UHGV virus genome: UHGV-0093507
DNA from: a virus
Reading direction: 5' to 3' (one strand)
DNA: 24,963 bases
This document shows positions 9,198-24,963 of this stretch, piece by piece (position 1 is the stretch's first letter; each line of letters opens with the position of its first letter). A model generated the notes under the pieces. The model was not told where the DNA came from, did no database searches, and worked only from the letters and a program-made list of their open reading frames with translations. A program made the position numbers and the translations under genes.

Positions 9198-10067
9198 TCA
9201 GAAGTCAGCCAGCTGGTCGGAGGCTGCGCCTGTTGCGGTGAACCGGTTCTGCGGATCGCCGTCCTGCGTGCGCAGTTTTTCCTTCAGTGCTGTCAGCTCT
9301 GTGGTCAGTGACGTAATTTTCTGGCGGTCCTGCTGATGGCGGGTTTCCAGCACATTAAAACGGTCGATAATGTCGGCCTGTGACGTTGCGACGCCTTCCA
9401 CCGCTTCCTGAATACGGGAAAAACTGGCGTCATCCGCTTTGCGGCCACGGCCAATAATCCCCATTACGCGGTTAAACCACTGGGTGCCTTCTTCCTGGCG
9501 TTGTTCTGCCATTTCGATGATTTCAGACTCGATGGCTTCGGAGATAAGCGGCGCTTCACCCTGGACACTGTTGAACGTCATTACCGCCTGACGTTGCTGT
9601 GCCGTGAATTTCAGGCGCTCAGTGCCCAGGCTTGCCGGGGTGTCGGTCATCGCCAGCCCGACCAGATAGGCGCGCCCGTTAACGGAGAACTGCGGGTGCA
9701 GTTCGATACTGGAATAGATTTTCTTGCCGTCCGCGACAAGCTGCTTCATGCGCTCGGTCGGTTCGATTTCTGCATACAGCGCAGTACGTCCGGCCAGCGG
9801 ACCTTCCGTAATGTCTTCCGTACTCAGTGCGGTGACATCGCCCATTGCGGAAAATTCGCTTGACGGGCATGGCGAGAGATAGTGCTCAACGTTCACGCGG
9901 GCAGCGTAAACATCCGGGTTGAAGTTCTCGGCGGCTTCACGCAGATGCACCGGACTGATTTCACGGCCATCAACAGTTGATCCGGAGACAGCCACGCGAA
10001 ACTTTTTGCGGGATGTCTTTTTTTCATTAGCCATAGTTTTTGCCCCTCTGACTGGTTCTTCAGTCAT
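9198..10067 (-). CDS. O: Capsid scaffolding protein (P2 gpO-like)
   Basis: 289-aa ORF, first gene of the leftward late operon, divergent from P; acidic/coiled-coil character. Confidence 0.85.
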   Translation of the reverse strand: MTEEPVRGAKTMANEKKTSRKKFRVAVSGSTVDGREISPVHLREAAENFNPDVYAARVNVEHYLSPCPSSEFSAMGDVTALSTEDITEGPLAGRTALYAEIEPTERMKQLVADGKKIYSSIELHPQFSVNGRAYLVGLAMTDTPASLGTERLKFTAQQRQAVMTFNSVQGEAPLISEAIESEIIEMAEQRQEEGTQWFNRVMGIIGRGRKADDASFSRIQEAVEGVATSQADIIDRFNVLETRHQQDRQKITSLTTELTALKEKLRTQDGDPQNRFTATGAASDQLADF

Positions 10068-10188
10068 GATGGCAAAGCGTAACAGGCTGATACAAAGGGC
10101 TTTTGTTGTAAGAAAACGGCCAGAACAGGGGGTTAAGGAGAACGGTTTCGCGCGCGGGTAATCTTCCTGTAATTACTCAGGGGGAGCA
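10068..10188. promoter_or_regulatory. Divergent late-promoter region between O (leftward) and P (rightward)
   Basis: 121-bp intergenic spacer between divergently transcribed late operons. Contains a dyad acaaagggcttttgt reminiscent of the partial-dyad activator sites of P2-type late promoters. Promoter elements were not mapped precisely. Confidence 0.45.
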
Positions 10189-11940
10189 ATGATTCAGGAC
10201 GCTTTTGTGCGCCAGCGTGCGCGGCAACTTTACTGGCAGGGTTATCCGCCCGCAGAAATATCACGTCTGATGGGAATAAACCCGAACACGATTTATGCGT
10301 GGAAAAAACGCGACCAGTGGGATGAAACGCCCCCCGTGCAGCGTGTCACGCAGTCCATCGATGCGCGCCTCATCCAGCTTACTGAAAAACAGAATAAAAC
10401 AGGCGGTGACTTTAAGGAAATAGACCTGCTGACCCGGCAGCTTAAAAAGCTGCATGATGGCCAGCCGGATGTGATGGCCGCAGGAAAGAAAGGCCGGGCG
10501 AAAAAACTTAAAAATCATTTCACGCCGGAACAGATTGCCGCACTGCGGGAAAAAATCATCAGCAGGCTGGAGTGGCATCAGCGGGGCTGGTTTGACTCCC
10601 TGACACTTTGCAGGGAAGCCGGGATACGTAACAGGATGATCCTGAAATCCCGACAGATTGGGGCGACCTGGTATTTTGCACAGGAAGCTCTGCTGATGGC
10701 GCTGCGTGACGATGTGGCGCAACCTTACCAGCGTAACCAGATTTTTTTGTCTGCGTCGCGTCGTCAGGCGTTCCAGTTTAAAAGCATTATTCAGAAGGCC
10801 GCGGCTGAAGTTGATGTGGAGCTGAAAGGGGGCGATAAAATCATCCTCTCCAACGGCGCAGAGCTGCATTTTCTCGGCACTTCTGCTGCGTCGGCACAGT
10901 CCTATACGGGCAATTTTTATTTTGATGAATTTTTCTGGGTCAGTCGCTTTGCTGAACTGCGCAAGGTGGCTGGCGCTATGGCAACCCTCAGCGGACTGCG
11001 GCGCACCTACTTCTCCACACCATCCACCGAAACGCACGAGGCGTACGCCTACTGGAACGGCGACCGCTGGAACGAGAAAAAGGCCTCGCATAAACGCCAG
11101 AGTTTTTCTGTGGACTGGAAAACGCTGCATAACGGGCTTATCTGCCCTGACCGGACTTGGCGGCAAATTGTCACGCTGGAAGATGTGGTTAATCACGGCT
11201 GGAAACACACCGATATCGACGAAATTCGTGATGAAAACACCGAAGACGAGTTCCTCAATCTCTATATGTGTGAGTTTGTCCGCGAAGGGGAATCGGCATT
11301 TAACCTGAATATCCTGATTGGCTGCGGTGTTGACGGATACGACGACTGGAAAGACTGGAAACCTTTTGCTCCCCGCCCGATGGGGAATCGTCCGGTATGG
11401 ATTGGGTATGACGCAAACGGCAGCAGTGGCAACGGCGACAGCGGTGCTGTGTCCGTGGTGGTTCCTCCGGCTGTTCCTGGTGGCCGTTTTCGAACGGTGG
11501 AGACGCGACGCGTTCAGGGGCTGGAGTTTGAAGAACAGGCCAGAGTCATTGAAGAGTTCACGTGTCGCTATAACGTGGAACACATCGGCATTGATGTGAC
11601 GGGCGGGAACGGGGAGGCTGTTTATCAGATAGTGAAACGGTTTTTCCCTGCTGCTATTCCGTACACCTTCACGCTGTCATCAAAACGGTCGCTGGTACTG
11701 AAAATGCTGCAAATAATGCGTGCCGGGCGGTGGGAATACGATCGCGCCGAACGCGAGCTGGTCGCGGCCTTTAACGCCGTGCGTAAGGTGAAAACACCGG
11801 GCGGCTTTATCACTTACGAAACGGACCGCGCGAGGGGGATCAGCCACGGCGACCTTGCGTGGGCAACCATGCTTGCTGTCATTAACGAACCGATTGGCGG
11901 CGAAGGAGAAAACGAGCGTTTCACGGTTATGGAGTTCTGA
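10189..11940 (+). CDS. P: Terminase large (ATPase) subunit (P2 gpP-like)
   Basis: 583-aa ORF; N-terminus MIQDAFVRQRARQLYWQGYPPAEISRLMGINPNTIYAWKKRDQWDE is characteristic of P2 gpP; RBS gggggag upstream; stop overlaps the Q start (TGATG). Confidence 0.9.
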   Translation: MIQDAFVRQRARQLYWQGYPPAEISRLMGINPNTIYAWKKRDQWDETPPVQRVTQSIDARLIQLTEKQNKTGGDFKEIDLLTRQLKKLHDGQPDVMAAGKKGRAKKLKNHFTPEQIAALREKIISRLEWHQRGWFDSLTLCREAGIRNRMILKSRQIGATWYFAQEALLMALRDDVAQPYQRNQIFLSASRRQAFQFKSIIQKAAAEVDVELKGGDKIILSNGAELHFLGTSAASAQSYTGNFYFDEFFWVSRFAELRKVAGAMATLSGLRRTYFSTPSTETHEAYAYWNGDRWNEKKASHKRQSFSVDWKTLHNGLICPDRTWRQIVTLEDVVNHGWKHTDIDEIRDENTEDEFLNLYMCEFVREGESAFNLNILIGCGVDGYDDWKDWKPFAPRPMGNRPVWIGYDANGSSGNGDSGAVSVVVPPAVPGGRFRTVETRRVQGLEFEEQARVIEEFTCRYNVEHIGIDVTGGNGEAVYQIVKRFFPAAIPYTFTLSSKRSLVLKMLQIMRAGRWEYDRAERELVAAFNAVRKVKTPGGFITYETDRARGISHGDLAWATMLAVINEPIGGEGENERFTVMEF

Positions 11941-12986
11941 TGAGCAGAAAAAATAAAAAAGTGCGCATGAGTTCACGCATTGATCTCGCTGATGCGCTCA
12001 GGAAAGAATCATCGCTCAGTGCATTCACATTTGATGGTCCTTATCGCCTGACCGGGCATGACCTGCTGGATAATATGTACTGTGCTGATAACGGGCGGTG
12101 GTATGAAACCCCGGTGGACTGGTACGGTCTGGCAAGAGCTGCCCGGCAAACGTCCTGGCATCAGTCTGCGCTTTACTTTAAGCGCAATGTATTACTCGGT
12201 TGCTACATCCCGCACCCGCTGCTTTCCCGGCAGGATTTCTCGGCGCTGGCGCTGGACTGGTTTGTGTTCGGTAACGCATTCCTTGAGCTTCGTAGCAATA
12301 TGCTCGGCGAACCGCTTAAATTACGGCACGCCCTGGCGAAATACATGCGACGCGGAAGCGATCTTGAATCATGGTGGTATGTGCAGGATGGCAAGGACGC
12401 GTTCCAGTTTCGTCCTGGCAAAGTGTGCCACCTGATGAATCCGGATATTAACCAGGAAATCTACGGCATGCCGGAATATCTTGGCGCATTACTCTCGGCC
12501 AGCCTTTCTCATTCGGCGGACATGTTCAGAAAACTGTACTACGACAACGGATCCCACGCCGGGTGCATCATCTACATCGGTGCAGCGCAGGTAAACCGCG
12601 AAAGCATGGACTCCCTGAAAGAAACGTTACAAGGTGCGCGTGGTGGTGGTGCGTTTAAAAACGTGCTCATCCACGCGCCCAACGGGGGCAAAGAGGGGGT
12701 GCAAATTTTGCCGTTCCAGCAGATCACCGCAAAGGATGAGTTCATGAATGTTAAGGCGGCATCCCGTGATGATGTGCTGGCTGCGCACCGCGTTCCGCCG
12801 CAACTGATGGGGGCAATGCCGGGCGAAAAAAGTGCGTTTGGTGATGTGGAGAAGGCCGCGCGGGTTTATGCAATTAACGAGCTGATGCCCGTTATGGAGG
12901 CCATGAAGCACATCAATGACTGGCTTGGCGAAGAGGTGATCCGTTTTAATTCTTATGCTCTTCTTGATGAAAAAACAGCCCCGTGA
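11940..12986 (+). CDS. Q: Portal vertex protein (P2 gpQ-like)
   Basis: 348-aa ORF, size and position as P2 Q; translationally coupled to P. Confidence 0.9.
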   Translation: MSRKNKKVRMSSRIDLADALRKESSLSAFTFDGPYRLTGHDLLDNMYCADNGRWYETPVDWYGLARAARQTSWHQSALYFKRNVLLGCYIPHPLLSRQDFSALALDWFVFGNAFLELRSNMLGEPLKLRHALAKYMRRGSDLESWWYVQDGKDAFQFRPGKVCHLMNPDINQEIYGMPEYLGALLSASLSHSADMFRKLYYDNGSHAGCIIYIGAAQVNRESMDSLKETLQGARGGGAFKNVLIHAPNGGKEGVQILPFQQITAKDEFMNVKAASRDDVLAAHRVPPQLMGAMPGEKSAFGDVEKAARVYAINELMPVMEAMKHINDWLGEEVIRFNSYALLDEKTAP

Positions 12987-13002
12987 TGGGGCTGTCCTTT
13001 TT
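12975..13002. terminator. Bidirectional rho-independent terminator between convergent Q and the 174-aa cargo gene
   Basis: Hairpin acagcccc-gtgat-ggggctgt (12975-12995) followed by a T-run on the plus strand and flanked by an A-run (T-run on the minus strand). The Q stop codon lies in the loop. Confidence 0.65.
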
Positions 13003-13525
13003 ACCAGAGTTGAACCATTTTCTGGGTGCCGTCAGGCTTGAGATTATCAATTTCAGAGAGAACGTAATATTGAATGGCTTCACAAACGGTGGTGTATGGT
13101 GACTTACCTTCTTTAAGTGGCACGATATTATTATTAACGCGAACCTGTATTTCATCGTTATACATTGCGATCGAAAGAGGAGTATGCACGAAGGCGACTT
13201 CGCCAGGTGTGTCGTCAACCACTGTCTCAATGCTGAAAATCAGTTTTCGCTCATCATTGCCGCCCCTTGCTTTGGGGGTGGCGGCAGGAATCTGAGATAA
13301 AGGCATTCTACGAAACCCTTCAGTTGTTTCCAGTCCGCATGAAACGTAATGCTGGCGATTACCGTCGCTATCCGTCCATGTCTGTGATGGCAGCTCCAGA
13401 GAGATTTCATAAGCATCAACAATTCCCTGGGCAATGCGTACAAGTGGGGTCAGGTCTTCATTGCGGCGAAAACTCTCCTTTACCTGATCTCGTTTTTCTC
13501 GTAACTGCTTGTAATTAATGACCAT
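13001..13525 (-). CDS. Hypothetical cargo protein, 174 aa, no family recognised
   Basis: ATG at 13525 is preceded by GGAGG at a 7-nt spacing, giving MVINYKQLREKRDQ…; the track ORF extends 13 codons further upstream. Visibly AT-richer than the phage backbone; convergent with Q. Confidence 0.5.
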   Translation of the reverse strand: MVINYKQLREKRDQVKESFRRNEDLTPLVRIAQGIVDAYEISLELPSQTWTDSDGNRQHYVSCGLETTEGFRRMPLSQIPAATPKARGGNDERKLIFSIETVVDDTPGEVAFVHTPLSIAMYNDEIQVRVNNNIVPLKEGKSPYTTVCEAIQYYVLSEIDNLKPDGTQKMVQLW

Positions 13526-14136
13526 AAAACAGCCTCCATTGATTTCTTTGCTCGTATTTTGCACTTATGAAGTGTGGTCGGCAAGGTGCCGCATCACTGA
13601 CGCGCTTCGCTTGTCTGCTGCTTCGCCGGGGCATAAAAAATTTATGCCCCGACTCTCCAGCTCCTGTATCAATCAGATAATTTCACGACGTCTTCCGACT
13701 TATCGCTATCATCGACGGCCAGACTCTTACACAATCCCGCCGCGCTGACTGCATGTTCTCGCCGCCTCAGTGCGATTTTGACGGCCTTACCTTTCACCCC
13801 ATCAAATCAGAACACCTTACGTCTTTTTCACGCTCAGCGTGAGCGATACAGCCATTCTGTTGTGTCGCTGCGACATCGTTCATGGAATGCTATTTACCCC
13901 CTGAAACGCGGGCTGTTCCCCCGTCACCTGCGCGCAGAAAAAACGCGTTTTTTTGTGCACGCACGGATCCTTGGCGGATCCAGCCGCCACGCGGGCCGGA
14001 AGGGCAAAAAGTCGTTCAAAAAAATTGTGCAAATTTGTGCACAATCTTGCATTAAAATCAACGTTCAGTGGATGTATTTAAGCGAAAAAAAGATCTTTGT
14101 ATAATTTCGTTCGGTTACGTTGGTGAGAGGTTCTGA

Positions 14137-14538
14137 GTGAAAGACATCACATATTGGAATGATAAAATTCAGAAACAAATTGATAGTTATCCTGAAGCTG
14201 TTCGAGAAAGGATAAATTTTGAGCTTGTTGCACTGCAGAGCGATTGTCCTCATTCTTTCGACAGTTTCGATTTTCCAGTGGATGGTGATGATGCCTTGGG
14301 GGTTCCACCTGCTCAAAAAAAATCAATGCGGGAAACGATTGGTCGCTACGCAATGCAATTAACCATCAAGAGTAGTGATTCTTATCGTATGATTTACGTT
14401 GCGAAATTTGCGGAGTCTGTTTACATACTTCATACATTTAAGAAAAAGACAAATGGTGTGTCAAAAAAAGAATATGAGACAGCTGCCGCAAGATACAAAC
14501 AATTAGTGGAGTATCGTCGTAAAAATGGCTTAAGATAG
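14137..14538 (+). CDS. Gp49-like / HigB-like RelE-superfamily toxin candidate
   Basis: GTG start with RBS gagagg upstream. C-terminal motif YRMIYVAKFAESVYILHTFKKKT…KKEYETAAARYKQL matches the Gp49-like (DUF891) pattern. A TATAAT hexamer at 14100-14105 and a ttgtgcaaatttgtgcaca repeat lie upstream. Confidence 0.6.
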   Translation: MKDITYWNDKIQKQIDSYPEAVRERINFELVALQSDCPHSFDSFDFPVDGDDALGVPPAQKKSMRETIGRYAMQLTIKSSDSYRMIYVAKFAESVYILHTFKKKTNGVSKKEYETAAARYKQLVEYRRKNGLR

Positions 14539-14608
14539 CTTGCAGGTATCTCAAATCTGATATAACATAATCAATGTCAGCAACATCGCTGATTAAGGCT
14601 GGAGAGTT

Positions 14609-14926
14609 ATGGAATTCGTCGTAGTCAAAAACCCTTATGCGTCATCAAGTAGCTCTGTAAATGAAGCTAGTGATAAACACATCCGGGCCCAATTAATGGT
14701 TATTATCCGAAAAATGATTCAGGAGCGCGGTCTTACCCAGCGAGAAGCTGCTGAATTGCTGGAAACAACCCAACCAAGAGTAAGCGAAATCATTAATGGT
14801 AAGTTAGATAATCATACCATTGATCGACTGTTTATCATGCTAAACATCCTGGGGTGGGATTTTAAGTTTGGGTATTCCGGTGGGGTTGTTACTGCGACGG
14901 CAGAACATTCCTGTCAGGTTGCATAA
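14609..14926 (+). CDS. XRE-family helix-turn-helix protein, HigA-like antitoxin/regulator candidate
   Basis: 105-aa ORF with HTH signature ERGLTQREAAELLETTQPRVSEIINGK; immediately downstream of the Gp49-like gene (toxin-first HigBA-type arrangement). Confidence 0.65.
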   Translation: MEFVVVKNPYASSSSSVNEASDKHIRAQLMVIIRKMIQERGLTQREAAELLETTQPRVSEIINGKLDNHTIDRLFIMLNILGWDFKFGYSGGVVTATAEHSCQVA

Positions 14927-14932
14927 ATATTA

Positions 14933-14966
14933 AGCCCCTGACGGGGCCAACCGTCAGGGGCTTTTC
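14933..14966 (+). terminator. Rho-independent terminator after the HTH gene
   Basis: Perfect 12-bp stem agcccctgacgg / ccgtcaggggct with 6-nt loop, followed by TTTT, 7 nt after the stop codon. Confidence 0.7.
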
Positions 14967-15091
14967 AACACAAAGAAATGATAGTCTGAGAAATATCATC
15001 ACCTTGATGTTTTGCATGTACAACTGTGATTCTAGTCAATCCAGGCAGATAATCAAGGTAAAAATCATTCTCAGTAAGGAGGTGATTATGG

Positions 15092-15241
15092 ATGGCTTTG
15101 AAATCAATTGTAAAAAAACCGGCTCCGAAAGGATTTCGTTGGCAGTTTTGCCGATACCGTAAGGTTCGTGGTGATTCTGGTCGAAAGCTGGATGCTCATG
15201 AGTATGGCTGGAAAGCTTGGGCGTTTCTAGTGCGAAGCTGA
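15092..15241 (+). CDS. Small basic, Trp-rich ORF (49 aa), absent from the ORF track, function unknown
   Basis: Strong RBS aaggagg (15077-15083) with 8-nt spacing to ATG 15092. Hand translation gives MALKSIVKKPAPKGFRWQFCRYRKVRGDSGRKLDAHEYGWKAWAFLVRS; a terminator hairpin follows directly. Confidence 0.35.
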   Translation: MALKSIVKKPAPKGFRWQFCRYRKVRGDSGRKLDAHEYGWKAWAFLVRS

Positions 15242-15256
15242 TATTTGATATTTAAA

Positions 15257-15281
15257 AGCATGGCGAAAGCCATGCTTTTTG
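15257..15281. terminator. Rho-independent terminator between the convergent small ORF and parR, possibly bidirectional
   Basis: Stem aagcatggc / gccatgctt with GAAA loop, followed by TTTTT on the plus strand. Confidence 0.65.
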
Positions 15282-15284
15282 TGA

Positions 15285-15599
15285 TCATTCAGGAAAAAAT
15301 TCCTGAATATTCTTTTTTATTTGACTTATATTCTGATTTTTGCAACCAACAGGCTCGCTGTTATGCCAGCCCCATATGTGATTGTTGGCAGGCATATTTT
15401 CCCCCTCTGACCATTCAGCCAGCCAGTAAGCAAAGGCAGGATCGTTTTTAATGAGTGCCAGTCCAGCCAGAAATGCCGCGCGTTGCGCGCGGCTGCGTTC
15501 GGAGGCTGGCAGGCTGTCGAGATAATTACACGCTTCCCGTTCACTCTTGACTGCAGCTGGCTTCAGATAGAAACTTATCCGTCTGGTTGGTGTCGTCAT
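15285..15599 (-). CDS. parR: ParR-like partition adaptor (type II, actin-type partition system)
   Basis: ATG at 15599 with AAGGAG RBS overlapping the parM stop. 104 aa; the N-terminal segment RISFYLKPAAVKSEREACNYLDSLPASERSRAQRAAFLAGLAL resembles plasmid R1 ParR as recalled from memory. The track ORF is longer (149 aa, alternative upstream start). Confidence 0.6.
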   Translation of the reverse strand: MTTPTRRISFYLKPAAVKSEREACNYLDSLPASERSRAQRAAFLAGLALIKNDPAFAYWLAEWSEGENMPANNHIWGWHNSEPVGCKNQNISQIKKNIQEFFPE

Positions 15600-15603
15600 T
15601 GGT

Positions 15604-16563
15604 TTACTCCTTGTCCATTGCGTACAGCCCATTAACCAGAGCAAACTGTGGCACCCCGTCCGCGATGAAAGTCGCATTAACTCCGCAGGCTTCGCGGATA
15701 GCGGGTGCCACAATCTCCGCCCCTCCACCGACAACCATCACCCGCCCGTAACCCGAAAAACCCGCCAGCGCGCGGCTCACGCGTTGTTTCAGTGTTTCTT
15801 CCTTTTCACGAATAACCGCCATCAGGCTGTTGTAATGCGCGTCATTGTGGATGTGCTGGCGCAGCCAGGCTTCATCATGGCGATGTTCGATAATGGTATT
15901 GGCGATGTGGTGACTGGTACGCATACCGTTAGTGGCCATCACCGACAGTACGGCATCGGCCATCAGGGAAACGCCTACGTGTGGATCGCAAAACACCTGG
16001 CTGATACCTGCCAGTTGTCCCTGAACCTTTGCCACATCCAGCGTGGTTCCGCCTAAATCCACAATCAGCAGGGATTCAAACGGACTCATGTCAGCCAGTG
16101 CTTTAAAGCCAGCCGGAATGGATTCAGGCATAACCCGCACGTTACGGATAGTGAATGCCTCACCGTTCTGGTACTCCACCGGGCGCATAACGTTTGCTTT
16201 TTTGCGGTTGATGTTGGCCATGTCCGGCTGTGCGTTTGTGTCGAAATATTCGCTCAGTGGCAGGGTGACAACCACATCCACTTCCTGTGGTGTGATGCCT
16301 GATTTGACCAGCGCGTGATGAATGGCAATGACATTCACATCGCTGTACTGGTATTGCGTGTCGGTCGTCTGGACAAAGCGATCACTGACCGGATCAAAAC
16401 CATAGCGCACGCCATCAAGCATGTAGTTCGCGGGCTGCGTGCCACCGAACGGCGCAGACCATTCCGACTTGAAGCTGTTCGGGCTGATGGCGTTGCGGCG
16501 TTCGCCGTTCTCAGTCCATGCCAGCTTGATGTTGGTGGAGCCGTCATCGATACAAATTTTCAT
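15604..16563 (-). CDS. parM: ParM/StbA-like actin-like segregation ATPase
   Basis: 319-aa ORF; N-terminal phosphate-1 motif MKICIDDGSTNIKLAW plus later motifs (PESIPAG, IVDLGGTTLDV, VMVVGGGAE) resemble R1 ParM as recalled from memory; RBS aagga upstream. Confidence 0.8.
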   Translation of the reverse strand: MKICIDDGSTNIKLAWTENGERRNAISPNSFKSEWSAPFGGTQPANYMLDGVRYGFDPVSDRFVQTTDTQYQYSDVNVIAIHHALVKSGITPQEVDVVVTLPLSEYFDTNAQPDMANINRKKANVMRPVEYQNGEAFTIRNVRVMPESIPAGFKALADMSPFESLLIVDLGGTTLDVAKVQGQLAGISQVFCDPHVGVSLMADAVLSVMATNGMRTSHHIANTIIEHRHDEAWLRQHIHNDAHYNSLMAVIREKEETLKQRVSRALAGFSGYGRVMVVGGGAEIVAPAIREACGVNATFIADGVPQFALVNGLYAMDKE

Positions 16564-16597
16564 GTCGCTTTTCCTTATGTTGATTAATTAATCGTTT

Positions 16598-16712
16598 GCG
16601 GGATTCTGAAATCCCGTTTTTGCCTGTTTTATGCGCGCTTCATATATCGCGGCGCGTTTTTTGCTCATTTACGGGATTTGTGAATCCCGTTTCTGTCTGT
16701 TTTTTGTTTCCA
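16598..16712. repeat. Two ~42-bp direct repeats, each holding a 16-bp near-palindrome (gggattctgaaatccc / gggatttgtgaatccc) and a T-rich tail; copy 2 lies inside the 3' end of gene A
   Basis: Copy 1 16598-16640 (tgcgggattctgaaatcccgtttttgcctgtttt), copy 2 16670-16712 (tacgggatttgtgaatcccgtttctgtctgtttt). They sit immediately upstream of parM on its coding strand. Confidence 0.55.
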
Positions 16713-19507
16713 CTGGTCAGGCCACCCCGCAGCAGGTCTGCTTTGCGGCGGGCGCGTTCAGTAGTTTCACTGATTCTCTGTGCGTGCTCTGCGTCGCGGA
16801 TGGCGCGCAGCATGTCAGAAAGCACGGTAACGGGTGTTTTCATGGTGTTCTGGTCCTGCTGAAGTGTGGATGCCAGGCGTGCGGCGGCTTCGGGGTCTGA
16901 TGCCCCCAGCTGTTCCAGATAGCTGGCGACCGGGTTATGGCGGATCTCCGTACTGCTTACGCCGTGGTTACGGCTCAGGCGCTGCCAGAGCTGCGTGATC
17001 CGGCTGTCCGGTCGGGTATCCGGTTTGCGTACAATTTCAAATCCCTGCGGTGCAATGATGCTGCCGTCAACGTACAGACTGCCGCCCCGTAACAGGTGCT
17101 GCATCTGCTGTTCACCGATATGCAGGCCGAGAGATTCAGCAGACTCCCGCCATTCTTTAGCGAGTAATTCGTGGTTATCAGGCAAAGGCCGCTGCTGTTT
17201 GCGGCTCTGTGTCCAGCTCTGCATTTCATCACTGCTGTTTTTTGCCTGTTTGTCACGCAGCGAACGCATCAGCGCCCGGCGTTCGTGCCGTTTCAGTGAG
17301 CGCATCCATTCGTTCACTTCAACGCCGTCAGGGAGCTGCGGCCACGGTGCTGGCCGTTCTTCCGGCTGTTCTGTCCCGTTGTTGTCCGTTTCCTGTACAC
17401 GGGGACAGTTATTGCCACGAGTCCAAGGGGCGGCAGGGCCGCCCTGAAGGTCAAAACCATTTTCGCGGGCGCTGTCTTCCACTTCCGGTTTACGTCTTAC
17501 CAGCTTCCAGTTATCCGGATGCGTGCACACGCGGGAGGATTCCCCGATGAGTGGTGACCAGATCCCGTAAATCTGTACACTCTGTTCGCCGTAATCGTTC
17601 AGCTCATCTGCGAGGTCGTAGGCGGTGCGAATCAGGTAGTCCTTGCGCGGAACAAGTACGCCGCCCTGTTTCTCAATGTAGGTGGCAAAACACCCTGCAT
17701 CAGCGGCAGCGAGTACCGCATCCATTGCGTCATCCTTCAGCCGTTGCGGACCTTCCGGGTTGCGTGCCATCTGGCTGGCAAGGCGGCGCAGTTCACGCCA
17801 CACCTGACGGGAGGGGATGCCAAAGAACTGGAACTGGCGGACCCGGTGAAGGCGCGCCCAGCCGATGGCGCGTTCCACGCTCTCGGCCATTGATTTTCCG
17901 GTTTCGTGGTCAACGCGTGGCTTGCCCGTTTTCGGGTCGATGCCATCCACGGCGCGGCTGTCCAGGTTCTTTCCGATGTAGGTGGCGATGTAGCTGGTTG
18001 GCGTGCCTTTTGAGCCGTCTACGTACTCCGCCTTAAAACGCGGAGTTATGTCATCGCCCAGCTCGTGGCGGTCTTCCTGAATGGCAATATCGCAGACGTG
18101 GGACACGATGGTTTCAATCTCGTCCGGATGTGCAAAGACCATCATATGCCAGTGCACAGTGCCGTCATGGTGAGGCTCCACCGTGCGGATGCCATACCAG
18201 CGCAGACCGTCGCGGTTCAGTTTTTTGCGGACCGCCGCAAAAAACGTGTTAACCAGGTAATCGCTGGAGTCGCGCATGGTGGCCCCGTTCCATTTGGGGT
18301 TCGGATGACCGTTCTCTGTTGTGGCGTGGTATTTTGACGGGCAGGTGACAGTCAGAAACACCGCTCTGTCGCCACGGGCTTCGGCCAGAAGTTCCAGTCC
18401 CTTCATGGTGGCCATCATTTCTGCCTTACGGTGAACCGGGTTACTTACTCCCGCGTAATACACCGTCTCGAGATCAATCGTGAACCCGTCTTCATTTTCC
18501 AGCATGAAACTTTTCAGGAAATCGCGTGTTTTCTCGCGCTGTGCGCGAAACTCGCTTAACGCGTCCTGGCTCAGATAGGGTGATGTTTTTCTGGAAACCA
18601 GACAGGCGGCGCGGAGTTGTTCTTCTCTCCACTCGCAACGTAACAGCCACAGTTTGCGTTTCCACCATTCCGCACAGGTCAGGCGAAGGATTGTGCCCGG
18701 CAGCAGCTCCGTGTCCGGTTCGTTCCTCCGGTCTTTATCTGTTGTCAGTGCGTCATAATGTGGAGGCATGGCGTGCAGGTGTAACGCCATGCGGGCCAGC
18801 ATCTGATACGCCTTCAGCGTTACATCCATGGTCAGTTCGCCATCAGTCGCGCCAAAGCCATCGCAGAGTTTTTCGAAGGTGCTGCTGAACATCGCCGCCG
18901 TCATGGTGGCCAGCGTCTGTATCTGGTGTTTGTTGAGCTGCGGCAGGTAAAGCAAATCGTCCAGGCGTTCGCGTCCGGCAAGGGAGCGATAACCCGGTGT
19001 CAGCCAGCGGCTGTCGGTGCGGTCCAGACGTTCGAATATTTTGCGCAGGGTTCCGCGTGTATAGCGTTCCGCCTGCCAGCTCTTTTTGCCTTTCTGACGA
19101 TCGGCTTCCTGCTTCTTGCGCAGGAAAGAGAGGTGGCGGCTCAGAGGTTCTCGCAGATAAACGGGAAGCGCCTTCAGTGTGGCAAAGGCACGGGCTACCG
19201 GGTCTTGTTCTGTTGCCCGGCGCTTACTGATGATGCTCTGTGCCAGCTTTTCACGCTGTCCGGCTTCCTCAAGGGATGCCATGAGTTTTTTACCCATGGC
19301 GGATTGTGCGAAAAAGGCTTCTTCCTTCGCTTCCTGTTCTTCCTGTGCCCTTTTGTCCGCCTCAAGGTAGTAACGGATGGCGCGTTGCAGGTCGGTTTCA
19401 GTTTCCTGCCTGCGCTCCGTAAATCTGGCCGGATCAATAGCTGGTCGTGGTTCATTCCAGCTCCATGCAAACTCACTCATGGCTGGTATCCCGTCACGCG
19501 CTGCCAC
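16640..19507 (-). CDS. A: Replication initiation endonuclease (P2 gpA-like rolling-circle initiator)
   Basis: 955-aa ORF with HUH-type motif (…DGTVHWHMMVFAHPDE…); last large gene of the early operon. Confidence 0.8.
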   Translation of the reverse strand: MAARDGIPAMSEFAWSWNEPRPAIDPARFTERRQETETDLQRAIRYYLEADKRAQEEQEAKEEAFFAQSAMGKKLMASLEEAGQREKLAQSIISKRRATEQDPVARAFATLKALPVYLREPLSRHLSFLRKKQEADRQKGKKSWQAERYTRGTLRKIFERLDRTDSRWLTPGYRSLAGRERLDDLLYLPQLNKHQIQTLATMTAAMFSSTFEKLCDGFGATDGELTMDVTLKAYQMLARMALHLHAMPPHYDALTTDKDRRNEPDTELLPGTILRLTCAEWWKRKLWLLRCEWREEQLRAACLVSRKTSPYLSQDALSEFRAQREKTRDFLKSFMLENEDGFTIDLETVYYAGVSNPVHRKAEMMATMKGLELLAEARGDRAVFLTVTCPSKYHATTENGHPNPKWNGATMRDSSDYLVNTFFAAVRKKLNRDGLRWYGIRTVEPHHDGTVHWHMMVFAHPDEIETIVSHVCDIAIQEDRHELGDDITPRFKAEYVDGSKGTPTSYIATYIGKNLDSRAVDGIDPKTGKPRVDHETGKSMAESVERAIGWARLHRVRQFQFFGIPSRQVWRELRRLASQMARNPEGPQRLKDDAMDAVLAAADAGCFATYIEKQGGVLVPRKDYLIRTAYDLADELNDYGEQSVQIYGIWSPLIGESSRVCTHPDNWKLVRRKPEVEDSARENGFDLQGGPAAPWTRGNNCPRVQETDNNGTEQPEERPAPWPQLPDGVEVNEWMRSLKRHERRALMRSLRDKQAKNSSDEMQSWTQSRKQQRPLPDNHELLAKEWRESAESLGLHIGEQQMQHLLRGGSLYVDGSIIAPQGFEIVRKPDTRPDSRITQLWQRLSRNHGVSSTEIRHNPVASYLEQLGASDPEAAARLASTLQQDQNTMKTPVTVLSDMLRAIRDAEHAQRISETTERARRKADLLRGGLTSGNKKQTETGFTNPVNEQKTRRDI

Positions 19508-22446: not shown

Positions 22447-22785
22447 TTATAAATCAGCCTGTTTAATAAAACTTTGCCCGCGAAGCAGACGATCAACCGT
22501 GCGAAGTGCTTCGTATAATGTGAAATCCTGCCCGAACTGATTGTCGCCACAGCTCAATGCAAAAATGCGGTTTCCGGTAAACGGATTGCGTGGGCATTTG
22601 TGGATCACGATTCCAGCTTTCTCAATCAGCCAGGCGTGCTCGCCGATTTGTTTTACTGGGTAGCCATCCGGCGTTGCGTGTGTATCACTCAGGCTGTAGC
22701 GGATGTTGCTGCGTGATGCACTGGTAGTGAAACGGTTAGCGTGGCGTTCTGTTCCGGTACGAAAATTACGGCGTTGCTTCAGCAT
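22447..22785 (-). CDS. Hypothetical early protein
   Basis: 112-aa ORF, second gene of the leftward early operon. Confidence 0.4.
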   Translation of the reverse strand: MLKQRRNFRTGTERHANRFTTSASRSNIRYSLSDTHATPDGYPVKQIGEHAWLIEKAGIVIHKCPRNPFTGNRIFALSCGDNQFGQDFTLYEALRTVDRLLRGQSFIKQADL

Positions 22786-22799
22786 AAAATGACACCTCG

Positions 22800-23078
22800 T
22801 TATTTTGTCATCTGCACGTATTTTTCTGCGCTCCTGATTGTTTTCAGGAAAAGAGCGAAGAGATTTACTGTGCGTCTTGAGTTCTTTTCATCCTGGTTGA
22901 TGGGAATTGAACCTCTGTCAGCCTGTCTTTTCACTGTGTTAACAGCTTGGTTGGTACGCTTTGCGTAATCTTTCAGGCTTTCTTCAAGTACTGGTAACCC
23001 ATGCTCATCGCGGTAGGGATAGAACGCTGCTAAACGCTCAAAGTCTGCCTGTTCGTGTGTGTTCAGGACTTTTGCCAT
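22800..23078 (-). CDS. Cox-like / excisionase-type small DNA-binding regulator, first gene of the early operon, divergent from repressor C
   Basis: 92-aa ORF positioned exactly as P2 cox relative to C and the operators; possible HTH around AKRTNQAVNTVKRQADRGSIP. The assignment is positional, not from sequence identity. Confidence 0.45.
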   Translation of the reverse strand: MAKVLNTHEQADFERLAAFYPYRDEHGLPVLEESLKDYAKRTNQAVNTVKRQADRGSIPINQDEKNSRRTVNLFALFLKTIRSAEKYVQMTK

Positions 23079-23117
23079 GTGTGATAACCTGCGCTATCTG
23101 TGGTTGTTTGTGACTTG

Positions 23118-23170
23118 GTGTACTTATAAGTACACCTTGTGCGCAAGCTTAGTGTACTTATAGGAACACT
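23118..23170. promoter_or_regulatory. Immunity-switch operator region: an 18-bp perfect palindrome and a related imperfect second site between cox-like and C
   Basis: gtgtacttataagtacac (23118-23135, perfect palindrome) and agtgtacttataggaacact (23151-23170); the shared 11-mer gtgtacttata recurs 34 bp apart. TATAAG-like hexamers are embedded in both orientations. Confidence 0.6.
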
Positions 23171-23174
23171 GTCA

Positions 23175-23483
23175 ATGCTTATCGGTGAAAAAATTAGAGT
23201 GATTCGTGAATCAGAGGATTTAACGCGCGAAGAATTTTGCGGCCTGATTGATGTGCCTATCGGCACTTTGCGTCGTTATGAAACGGGGAGGATTGAAAAC
23301 ATAGGTGGCGAAGTGCTTATCAAGATTGTTAATCACCCTCGCTTTTTTAAGTACATGAATTGGCTTATGACGGGAAAAACAAATGAGGCTGCTGGGCAGA
23401 TCAGTCCGTCTCTCTCCCCTGATGGGCCAAAAAGCACATCGCCTTCTCAAAAACCCCGCAAGACTGGCACACAGCCCGGCTAA
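23175..23483 (+). CDS. C: Immunity repressor (P2 C-like)
   Basis: ATG at 23175 directly after the second operator. HTH segment (…REEFCGLIDVPIGTLRRYETG…) and C-terminal HPRFFKYMNWLMTGKTNEAAGQISPSL resemble P2 C as recalled from memory; the track ORF starts 12 codons further upstream. Confidence 0.7.
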   Translation: MLIGEKIRVIRESEDLTREEFCGLIDVPIGTLRRYETGRIENIGGEVLIKIVNHPRFFKYMNWLMTGKTNEAAGQISPSLSPDGPKSTSPSQKPRKTGTQPG

Positions 23484-23532
23484 TCATGGAGCGCTGGGGG
23501 CATGGTGGTCTTGTAACGCTGGGGTTTCACGA

Positions 23533-24507
23533 ATGAGCATAAAATCAATTCCGGGAGGGTATCTTCTTGACATGCGCCCGGAGGGGCGTAAAGGCAAACG
23601 CATTCGTAAAAAATTTAAAACGAAATCGGATGCAGTTTTATATGAGCGGTGGGTGCTGGCGCAACAGCATAACAATGAGTGGAAAGGAAACTCCATTGAT
23701 CGCCGTCCGCTGTCAGTGCTTATTGACTTGTGGTGGAAATACCACGGCCAGCTAATGAAGTCAGGGCATAACACGCGCCTTAAATTGCTGCGCTTGAGTG
23801 AGGCAATGGATGACCCGTGCGTGCATAAACTTAATACAACGATGCTCACCGAGCTACGTGTGTCCAGGATAGAGCAGGGGATACAGCCCAGCACCATAAA
23901 TCGAGAGATTGGGGCGTTAAGCGCGATGTTTACCGCACTCATCTCATCCGGCCATTTTCTTAACGATAACCCCGTTCAAGGCCTTAAAGGAATGAAGGTT
24001 AACGAGCGCGAAATGGGATATCTGAGTAAGTCTGAATGTGTTCAGTTGCTGGATGCACTGGCTGAAAATCCCGATGAACGGCTGGCTGTCGAAATCCTTC
24101 TGTCGACCGGGGCGCGATGGGGCGAGGTAGCGGCACTGGAGCAGCGCCGTGTTCTTCATTGTCGAATCACTTTTTCAAAAACGAAGAACAGCAAAAACCG
24201 TACCGTTCCTATTTCTGAAAGCCTGTTTGAAAAGATCAAAAAACGGGGCGGGAAACTGGTGTTTCCGACGCTGGATTATCCATTGGTTCGCGATGTCATC
24301 AAAACGGTCGCACCTGATGTTCCTGATGGCCAGGCTGTTCATGCGCTGCGCCACACCTTCGCCAGTCATTTCATGATGAACGGCGGCAATATTCTGACGC
24401 TCCAGAAAATTCTGGGGCACGCAAAGATTCAGACAACGATGATTTATGCCCATCTTGCGCCGGATTACTTGCAGGATGCGGTGAGATTTAATCCTATTGC
24501 TGGGTAA
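23533..24507 (+). CDS. int: Tyrosine integrase (P2 Int-like site-specific recombinase)
   Basis: ATG at 23533 gives MSIKSIPGGYLLDMRPEGRKGKRIRKKFKTKSDA…; C-terminal catalytic signature …HALRHTFASHFMMNGG…LGHAKIQTTMIYAHL (R-H-R-Y family); downstream of C as in P2. Confidence 0.9.
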   Translation: MSIKSIPGGYLLDMRPEGRKGKRIRKKFKTKSDAVLYERWVLAQQHNNEWKGNSIDRRPLSVLIDLWWKYHGQLMKSGHNTRLKLLRLSEAMDDPCVHKLNTTMLTELRVSRIEQGIQPSTINREIGALSAMFTALISSGHFLNDNPVQGLKGMKVNEREMGYLSKSECVQLLDALAENPDERLAVEILLSTGARWGEVAALEQRRVLHCRITFSKTKNSKNRTVPISESLFEKIKKRGGKLVFPTLDYPLVRDVIKTVAPDVPDGQAVHALRHTFASHFMMNGGNILTLQKILGHAKIQTTMIYAHLAPDYLQDAVRFNPIAG

Positions 24508-24517
24508 GGAGGATGTT

Positions 24518-24913
24518 GTGGAAAAAACAGTTAATAGCGATTTGCATTTAGGTCAGTACTGGAGAATAGACATTGTCTGCGATCCAGAACTTCGAGATGA
24601 GGTTGAGCAATATTTTTCTCGACACGATGTTGGTTTTAGCAAAATTGAAGTTTTTTCCGTCGAAAATCCATATAAACTTGCTCTGTTCTTTGATTTCGCG
24701 AAGAAGGGTGTGGAGGTTGCAAAAGCCATTATGGGACTCTTAGACCGAAATGATATTGAAATAACGATGTATCGTGCTACGGACAGTAGCCCGCAGTCTG
24801 TAAAAAGCATCAAATTGCGTAAGTCTGAAGACGTAGAGAAATGTAAAGATTTGCTTAGTACGTGTGTCGCAATTGGCGTTCAACGAAATAAGGAAAAAGA
24901 GGGGAGCGAATGA
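24518..24913 (+). CDS. Hypothetical AT-rich protein immediately downstream of int
   Basis: RBS aaggagg (24506-24512) inside the int 3' end with a GTG at 24518. About 131 aa, Lys/Glu-rich, no family recognised; lower GC than int. Confidence 0.4.
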   Translation: MEKTVNSDLHLGQYWRIDIVCDPELRDEVEQYFSRHDVGFSKIEVFSVENPYKLALFFDFAKKGVEVAKAIMGLLDRNDIEITMYRATDSSPQSVKSIKLRKSEDVEKCKDLLSTCVAIGVQRNKEKEGSE

Positions 24914-24963
24914 TCCACAAAGTGACCACATCCCTGTTATTTGTTGTGGTTGGCTGTGTTTTT
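24910..24963 (+). CDS. 5' fragment of a gene encoding a signal-peptide or lipoprotein-like N-terminus (runs off the window)
   Basis: ATG at 24910 overlaps the previous stop (ATGA); translation gives MIHKVTTSLLFVVVGCV…, hydrophobic with a Cys. Confidence 0.3.
   Translation, partial: MIHKVTTSLLFVVVGCVF

Follow-up and report, generated by a model that had tools for sequence, protein, structure and literature searches.

The type II (ParMRC) partition systems are the classic stabilisers of low-copy plasmids. In the plasmids R1/NR1 (parMRC, or StbA/StbB) and pB171 (par2), parM is followed by parR, and a set of repeats is located 5' of parM. The centromere of R1 is reportedly formed by ten 11-bp iterons, a description ascribed to Dam and Gerdes in 1994, and these iterons flank the par promoter. 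A phage-encoded centromere-binding protein is also combined with a motor in the phage-plasmids, such as P1 (ParAB), N15 (SopAB), D6 (StbAB), and the Clostridium botulinum phage c-st (TubZR), the prophages of which are extrachromosomal and need partition for their inheritance. In Corynebacterium glutamicum, the AlpC/AlpA/alpS system of the prophage CGP3 is induced early and is needed for the efficient replication of the excised phage DNA, for which its authors argue in favour of a transport of the DNA to the membrane rather than segregation (Donovan et al. 2015, PMC4446434). The locus described here is found in the virus genome UHGV-0093507, a stretch of 24,963 nucleotides referred to below as the window, in which the genes parM and parR, together with two dyad repeats, accompany gpA, the replication endonuclease gene of a P2-like phage. 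With a probability of about 0.55, this locus is a complete and selectively maintained ParMRC-like cassette, which would be expressed from the early operon and would move extrachromosomal circles of the phage genome. The features on which this reading depends are as follows.

15604-16563, minus strand: parM, an actin-fold partition ATPase (open reading frame, ORF, of 319 amino acids, with Pfam and PDB matches)
15285-15599, minus strand: parR, an adaptor with a ribbon-helix-helix N-terminal domain (104 amino acids, with Pfam and PDB matches)
15254-15279: hairpin AAAAGCATGGC-GAAA-GCCATGCTTTT with perfect 11-nucleotide arms, an inverted repeat right after the parR stop
16592-16633: proximal 42-nucleotide repeat, with the dyad CGGGATT-N4-AATCCCG at 16599-16616, a candidate ParR site (parC/operator)
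16665-16706: distal 42-nucleotide repeat, with its dyad at 16672-16689, inside the last gpA codons
16640-19462, minus strand: gpA, the HUH rolling-circle replication endonuclease (Pfam Phage_GPA, 2.2e-129), directly 5' of parM and in the same orientation

Both partition genes lie on the minus strand where the initial annotation had placed them, in the order that it had likened to R1 (parM and then parR), and the homology searches bear out its identification of the two proteins. The parM product contains the Pfam domain StbA_N (1.7e-82) and the ParM C-terminal domain (2.9e-68), and matches the ParM of R1 (PDB 1mwk, E=3.8e-92) over residues 2-316. The nucleotide-binding motifs IDDGSTNIKL, DLGGTTLD, and GGGAE are identical in these two proteins, and the cassette thus encodes an actin-fold ATPase of the ParM/StbA family, as expected of a type II system, with its nucleotide-binding motifs intact. 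A set of 86 copies was assembled from 80 IMG/VR contigs, Escherichia albertii, Salmonella, public phages, and the window itself. ParM is full-length (319 amino acids) in all 85 of the loci in which it was located, and the gene is under strong purifying selection, with a pairwise ratio of nonsynonymous to synonymous substitutions (dN/dS) of 0.054.

The parR product contains the Pfam domain Plasmid_stab_B (9.5e-26), and its N-terminal region (residues 6-60) is matched by the ParR/StbB of pB171 (2jd3, E=0.0035), that is, a ribbon-helix-helix adaptor is encoded directly 3' of parM, as in the type II systems. Among 49 distinct ParR variants, residues 1-65 are conserved, residues ~66-90 form a hypervariable linker, and the C-terminal tail, NI(Q/R)(A/E)(F/L)FPE, is again conserved, with the predicted DNA-contacting strand, TRRISFYLKP, being nearly invariant. 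A similar tail (N-I/A-x-x-L-F-P-D/E/R/G) is found in the ParRs of the plasmid pETEC_35 and of the Plesiomonas, Hafnia, and Serratia phages, and that of the StbB of phage D6 is looser (NLADSLPD). The tail of the R1 ParR is said to be the ParM-binding peptide, as credited to Gayathri et al. in 2012, and a conserved tail behind a freely varying linker is the pattern that would be expected if the tail had the same role here. The pairwise dN/dS of parR is 0.28 for codons 1-64 and 0.22 for the last 12 codons, and dS is far higher in parR (0.40) than in parM (0.08).

At least two allele classes of ParR can be recognised, with a linker of ~25 residues, and the ParR of the window is 54% identical to that of the P2-like phage P88 and 71% identical to the second class. 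In megablast alignments with the other P88-like phages, the homology is lost within parR, and the break falls at ~15404, ~15454, or ~15532 according to the phage compared; the differing parR alleles and the onset of the variable cargo account for these breaks. Exchange of the downstream cargo may be anchored by recombination in the 5' part of parR, which is conserved. At the junction of the two genes, the parM stop codon (TAA, 15606-15604) is separated by a gap of 4 nucleotides from the parR ATG (15599-15597), and an AAGGAG motif is located within the 3' end of parM, before the parR start. The pair had been described as translationally coupled, which is plausible given this short gap and the AAGGAG, although the genes do not overlap. 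The hairpin that follows parR (15254-15279) is a probable bidirectional terminator, which would close the operon, and it was not flagged by the terminator scan because its T run is short.

The two 42-nucleotide repeats are direct, 79% identical, and spaced by 73 nucleotides, with the proximal dyad beginning 53 nucleotides 5' of the parM ATG. The sequence CGGGATT-N4-AATCCCG has exactly two perfect matches within the window. The gpA stop (16640-16642) lies between the two repeats because the distal one sits inside the 3' end of gpA, and the overlap of the last ~20 gpA codons with this repeat places the stretch under double constraint. The placing of the repeats at the position of parC, as initially proposed, therefore holds for their pairing and for their location 5' of parM, but not for the distal copy as an intergenic element. 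In the Escherichia coli clade, the whole upstream region is ~96% conserved, and a comparison of 58 distinct sequences shows that the dyad arms are kept while the loops vary, with AAAAAACAGAC, just upstream of the dyad, being invariant. The search for covariation between ParR and its site within this clade returned no usable signal, and was uninformative because there is too little variation, given the level of identity of the region and the essentially invariant ParR strand.

The more diverged lineages provide a better view of the cis element. A pair of YGGG-N10-CCCR sites, 72-73 nucleotides apart and directly 5' of parM, is found in the window, P88, Salmonella, Plesiomonas, and Hafnia, with only 0-2 other matches in those 11-25-kb loci, a post hoc count, given that the pattern was read by eye from the same loci in which it was later counted. 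In Plesiomonas and Hafnia, just the 4-bp GGG/CCC arms, 10 nucleotides apart, are retained. The gpA stop of Plesiomonas likewise falls between the two sites; in Hafnia, an extra ORF parts gpA from parM and the dyad sites remain with parM, and in Enterobacter, where extra ORFs are found between gpA and parM, the sites also travel with parM. In Serratia and Enterobacter, the ParR strand is NRKISFYLKP, not TRRISFYLKP, and the paired element is a different one, an inverted repeat of GGGAACnAnATAGAAAAAT with arms of 14-20 nucleotides. This change of the cis element along with the DNA-binding strand of ParR supports the interpretation of the repeats as putative ParR sites, whether centromere, operator, or both.

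The phasing of A-tracts near 10-10.5 bp, which might be taken as a sign of a bent centromere, is significant in E. coli, Serratia, Enterobacter, and D6 relative to mononucleotide shuffles only, and is absent in Plesiomonas and Hafnia; it was not relied on here. Upstream of the parM of the IncF plasmid pETEC_35 (1040-1080 of its record), the sequence GTTTTTGTCTGTGTTTTT resembles GTTTCTGTCTGTTTTTTG, which flanks the distal dyad of the window (16688-16712), but the two are oppositely oriented with respect to parM. This likeness could be due to chance in T-rich DNA, or could be the remnant of a common iteron sequence.

The expression of the cassette would appear to be tied to that of gpA. All the genes of the stretch that runs from the cox side to parR, gpA and parM included, are on one strand. 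In the interval between gpA and parM, consensus scans, which are insensitive in the case of promoters, detected neither a sigma-70-like site nor a terminator on the sense strand, whether in the window or in four diverged lineages. In Serratia and Enterobacter, the sole hits of the promoter scan overlap the start codon and are unusable. The single strand, the lack of a recognisable promoter or terminator, and the hairpin after parR point to parMR as the last genes of the early replication operon, most likely co-transcribed with gpA and made after infection or induction. The gpA ORF can be extended to 19507, and its RefSeq relatives, annotated as 'replication endonuclease', start at the equivalent of 19462. 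The protein has 940 amino acids here and 785-835 in the phages of Plesiomonas, Enterobacter, and Hafnia, and the P2 gpA has ~760. One further feature lies within this gene.

17397-17446: conserved stretch of ~50 nucleotides inside gpA, under features annotated 'nicking at origin of replication'

This stretch (query positions 638-687 of window 16760-18760) is 85-92% identical to the P2-like phages of Klebsiella, Yersinia, and Salmonella, and to Fels-2, the gpA of which is otherwise too diverged for megablast. It is probably the origin of replication of the phage, in which case the origin would be ~0.7-0.8 kb from the repeats.

The initial annotation had considered the module to be unknown in integrative P2-like phages, and this view has to be abandoned, given that a survey of the relatives found it to be routine in these phages, under a known annotation. 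The cassette region follows gpA in 14 phage records (P88 and 13 others), at a nucleotide identity of 94-98% in a megablast of the region and of 94-99% for the cassette, including Citrobacter phiSM, 503458, 520873, P884B11, and vB_EcoM-569R5, and most of these records annotate ParM or a partition protein beside the replication endonuclease. It is also present in 1304 of the 5426 complete E. coli genomes (24%), where the records listed read 'plasmid segregation protein ParM', 'plasmid partitioning/stability family protein', and 'replication endonuclease'. The P88-type gpA is found at a coverage of at least 80% in 1320 E. coli genomes and the cassette in 1278-1304, and parM is present in all 14 phage records with a P88-type gpA. 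Given the matching counts and the presence of parM in all these phages, the cassette is near-universal in the P88-type gpA lineage. A putative partitioning system was reported by Rousset et al. 2022 in about a fourth of P2-like phages, and the supplementary tables of that study list StbA + Plasmid_stab_B loci (PMC9122126). In the phiSM paper, the gene appears among the 'fitness' factors. The cassette is thus already known, having been both annotated and remarked on in print, and what is new here is its lineage-core status, the phage-specific clade of ParM, and the conservation of the dyad pair in diverged lineages.

A scan of genome contigs with one protein recovered near-identical copies only from E. 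albertii, Salmonella, and a 'Vagococcus' assembly. In the last of these, a 226-kb contig (NZ_JBQPOM010000071.1) of the Gram-positive 'Vagococcus sp. WN89Y', the ParM is 97% identical to the E. coli phage copy, which is most likely the result of enterobacterial contamination of the assembly.

The suggestion of a capture from a plasmid in recent times is contradicted by the relationships of ParM. The nearest plasmid ParMs are at most 53% identical to that of the window, and the six PLSDB records with more than 98% identity are prophage copies. A search of a large protein collection recovered relatives from Plesiomonas (63% identity), Hafnia (62%), Serratia (58%), and Enterobacter (54%), all of them in P2-like prophages, 3' of gpA and 5' of the cargo and portal, and the two relatives examined at 48-50% identity were found in an integrative and conjugative element and in an integrated plasmid, respectively. 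In a neighbour-joining tree of 107 ParMs, which is rough and was rooted at its midpoint, all the phage-context proteins form one clade of 16. The cassette has been kept across at least seven genera, at identities of 54-99%. The presence of diverged ParMs at the same position in P2-like phages, with no plasmid ParM above 53%, indicates that the gpA-parM-parR linkage is old and does not derive from a recent capture. On these comparisons, the cassette is a lineage-core trait of the P88-like and related P2-like phages, rather than recent cargo.

In the reading preferred here, dimers of ParR would use the ribbon-helix-helix domain to bind the pair of dyads, which have the gpA stop between them, ParM would be captured by the conserved C-terminal tail of ParR, and ATP-driven ParM filaments would push or position the DNA that bears the sites. 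In P2-type replication, gpA initiates a rolling-circle synthesis that produces monomeric circles, and parMR would be made while the phage genome is an extrachromosomal circle copied by gpA. The likely job of the cassette would be the separation or positioning of these circles, either to both cell halves or to the daughters before integration. The same cassette might alternatively serve the efficient replication and packaging of the circles, and the long-term maintenance of a plasmid seems less likely than their separation or positioning. A more specific version, which is rather unlikely, sees a viral cytoskeleton that works with the rolling-circle initiator rather than in plasmid maintenance, in which ParR would be seated at the gpA terminus, ~0.7-0.8 kb from the nick site of the origin, and the new circles would be positioned by filaments of ParM. 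In R1, the HUH relaxase TraI is stimulated by both partition proteins (PMC4949242), and by analogy the HUH endonuclease gpA might even be stimulated directly by those of the phage. If this version is true, a quarter of the strains of E. coli would have an inducible actin-like machine, which either boosts phage replication or distributes the genomes to both daughters before integration.

A number of points weigh against the separation or positioning of circles by the cassette. The ParM spindle is a pushing device for low-copy plasmids, and would have no obvious role amid the many copies of the lytic cycle. The two dyad sites are approximately seven helical turns apart, unlike the iteron array of R1, and on the plus strand both dyads, 8-bp stems with a T run behind them, receive terminator-like scores. 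The count of the YGGG-N10-CCCR sites was post hoc, and the insensitivity of the promoter scan is relevant to the proposed timing of expression, given that there may be a weak promoter regulated by ParR, such as TTCAGA-N16-ATTAAT, which was read by eye and overlaps the proximal dyad, and that the cassette may also be expressed in lysogens. In addition, the literature yielded no functional study of the cassette.

The rival explanations differ in which of these observations they accommodate. The maintenance of these phages as stable low-copy extrachromosomal circles, that is, as phage-plasmids, was suggested by Rousset et al. 2022 (PMC9122126) and agrees with the classic role of ParMRC, with the presence in the P1-like phage-plasmid D6 of a StbA/StbB pair that is 48% identical to the window ParM, and with the PLSDB record NZ_CP148288.1 (E. 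coli Z1323PEC0009), a circular 'plasmid' of 34,461 bp that is a complete P88-like phage with an integrase, cox, a repressor, and a Hok/Gef gene. It is nevertheless unlikely, given that the complete E. coli genomes have the cassette at 1442 positions on chromosomes and at 2 on plasmids, and that the integrase region of the window, found at 306 positions, is on the chromosome in every case, adjoining btuC. The attP junction of NZ_CP148288.1 is intact in 0 of the 442 matching genomes, which argues against episomes with limited force, since a circular record cut at att would also look split, and this record is linearised within ~18 nucleotides of the point at which att is broken in the 442 integrated copies. 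An excised, a replicating, or a graph-collapsed prophage would give such a record, which probably represents not a plasmid but an excised prophage. The integrase, repressor, and cox have been retained in the window, no plasmid Rep was found among the ORFs examined, and gpA, the sole replication gene seen, is in the early operon with cox; this operon is controlled by the repressor, and, judging from the biology of P2 and 186, a repressed prophage would not replicate. The element is an integrase-bearing P2-like prophage, the relatives of which reside in the chromosome, rather than a plasmid or a separate replicon in lysogens with plasmid-type replication control, and stable plasmid carriage is at best rare. 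The episomal persistence that had been proposed as one explanation finds almost no support here. As for the description of the element as integrated, the window includes an integrase, a repressor, and early genes but no host junction, and integration is deduced from the relatives. Phages of the group with another integrase type are integrated beside yecA/tyrP.

A doubtful alternative, of similar standing to the phage-plasmid, is that the cassette is real, but that its hairpin repeats act at the level of the RNA, as antisense terminators that shield gpA or as stabilisers of the gpA-parM transcript, with the ParR site located elsewhere. The terminator-like dyads on the plus strand would be explained, as would the antisense terminator-like hairpins also found 5' of parM in Serratia and the folding of the repeat region, which is more stable than that of shuffles (z = -3.5). 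The 4-bp arms of Plesiomonas and Hafnia are, however, too weak for a terminator and suit a dyad protein site, the spacing and position of the pair are preserved in these two lineages, and the arms are conserved while the loops vary. A terminator (14932-14963) and the hairpin after parR already part the plus-strand genes from the cassette, and no Rfam match was found in 12900-17100 at a permissive threshold, except for a sub-threshold His_leader on a terminator elsewhere. The repurposing of the cassette as a lysogen function, such as defence, exclusion, incompatibility with phages or plasmids that have related centromeres, or assistance in the segregation of the host chromosome region, is improbable, even though the gpA-portal interval, which holds tin and old in P2, is a known hotspot of anti-phage cargo (PMC9122126), and a Gp49/HTH toxin-antitoxin pair adjoins the cassette. 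Neither ParM nor ParR has a match in PADLOC, all the canonical partition features appear to have been kept, and the cassette, despite being in the right position for hotspot cargo, is near-universal and invariant beside gpA, with the variable cargo beginning 3' of parR or within its 3' half; the defence role raised in the initial annotation is not borne out. The least probable account is that of a neutral or decaying remnant of an old recombination between plasmid and phage, with no present function. In its favour, it is hard to see what the cassette would do in a phage that integrates, and no role has been established for it, but the low dN/dS of parM, the intact ORFs in 85 of 85 loci, and the persistence of the cassette across genera all contradict decay, as does the tight packing typical of phage genomes.

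The surroundings of the cassette are those of a P2-like phage in the reverse of the P2 map, with the cassette interval located between gpA and cos/portal. The neighbouring features are as follows.

10189-11940, plus strand: terminase
11940-12986, plus strand: portal
13001-13564, minus strand: ORF of 187 amino acids adjoining the portal, 'hypothetical protein' in 569R5 and E. coli NZ_CP054662
13597-14063 (approximate): non-coding stretch between variable segments, 92-93% identical among P88-like phages
14137-14538 and 14609-14926, plus strand: Gp49-family (RelE/HigB-like) toxin and HTH_37/XRE antitoxin (Pfam Gp49, 3.2e-13)
14932-14963: strong hairpin/terminator 3' of the toxin-antitoxin pair

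The product of 13001-13564 has no match in Pfam, NCBIfam, or PADLOC. The non-coding stretch at ~13597-14063 is probably the cos packaging region. The Gp49/HTH pair is convergent with parR and is annotated as a type II toxin-antitoxin pair in its RefSeq relatives; it is variable hotspot cargo, since P88 and 569R5 have other genes in this position. Beyond gpA are early genes, cox, a divergent helix-turn-helix (HTH) repressor, and the integrase. The gpA, portal, terminase, and capsid genes are collinear with those of P88, which identifies the window as a P88-like P2-type phage (Xuanwuvirus, Peduoviridae), and the sequence identity to this phage is 97-98% in the segments 9453-12949 and 15529-19159. 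An identity of 96-98% to P88, NZ_CP148288, and NZ_CP054662 is found over the structural genes and the gpA-parMR region, but the immunity and integrase module (22750-24963) differs from all three. In the related NZ_AP045783, the early region is interrupted by an IS5.

As a discovery, the cassette carries little weight, being annotated in RefSeq phages and in ~24% of the complete E. coli genomes. It does raise the question of why strong purifying selection should maintain an actin spindle of the plasmid type in an integrating, rolling-circle P2-like lineage, and this in several enterobacterial genera. The phage-specific ParM clade, the pair of dyads 72-73 bp apart, and the probable co-transcription with gpA provide experimental handles in P88, which is easily induced.

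Among the known systems, the closest are P88 (NC_026014) and the P88-like phages, in which ParM is 95-99% identical, occupies the same place after gpA, and is preceded by the same two dyads, with the P88 genes being annotated as 'plasmid segregation protein ParM' and 'partition protein'. These phages differ in the 3' half of parR (the linker), the downstream cargo, and the immunity and integrase modules. The order of the genes and the location of the repeats 5' of parM are shared with R1/NR1 and pB171, but R1 is a low-copy plasmid replicon and the window is an integrating phage. Its cis element consists of two 18-bp dyads, 73 bp apart, with the distal one in the coding region of gpA and no recognisable promoter between them, and the ParR of the E. 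coli phages is shorter (103-104 amino acids), lacking a segment of ~12 residues found after the DNA-binding domain in the plasmid ParRs. The phage-plasmids resemble the window in combining a centromere-binding protein with a motor, but the P88-like prophages have an integrase and are found integrated. The best functional analogy is AlpC/AlpA/alpS of CGP3, which is likewise an integrated prophage with an actin-like ATPase and a DNA-binding adaptor that binds repeats 5' of the operon (PMC4446434), although there the adaptor gene comes first, and both the host phylum and the type of phage are unrelated.

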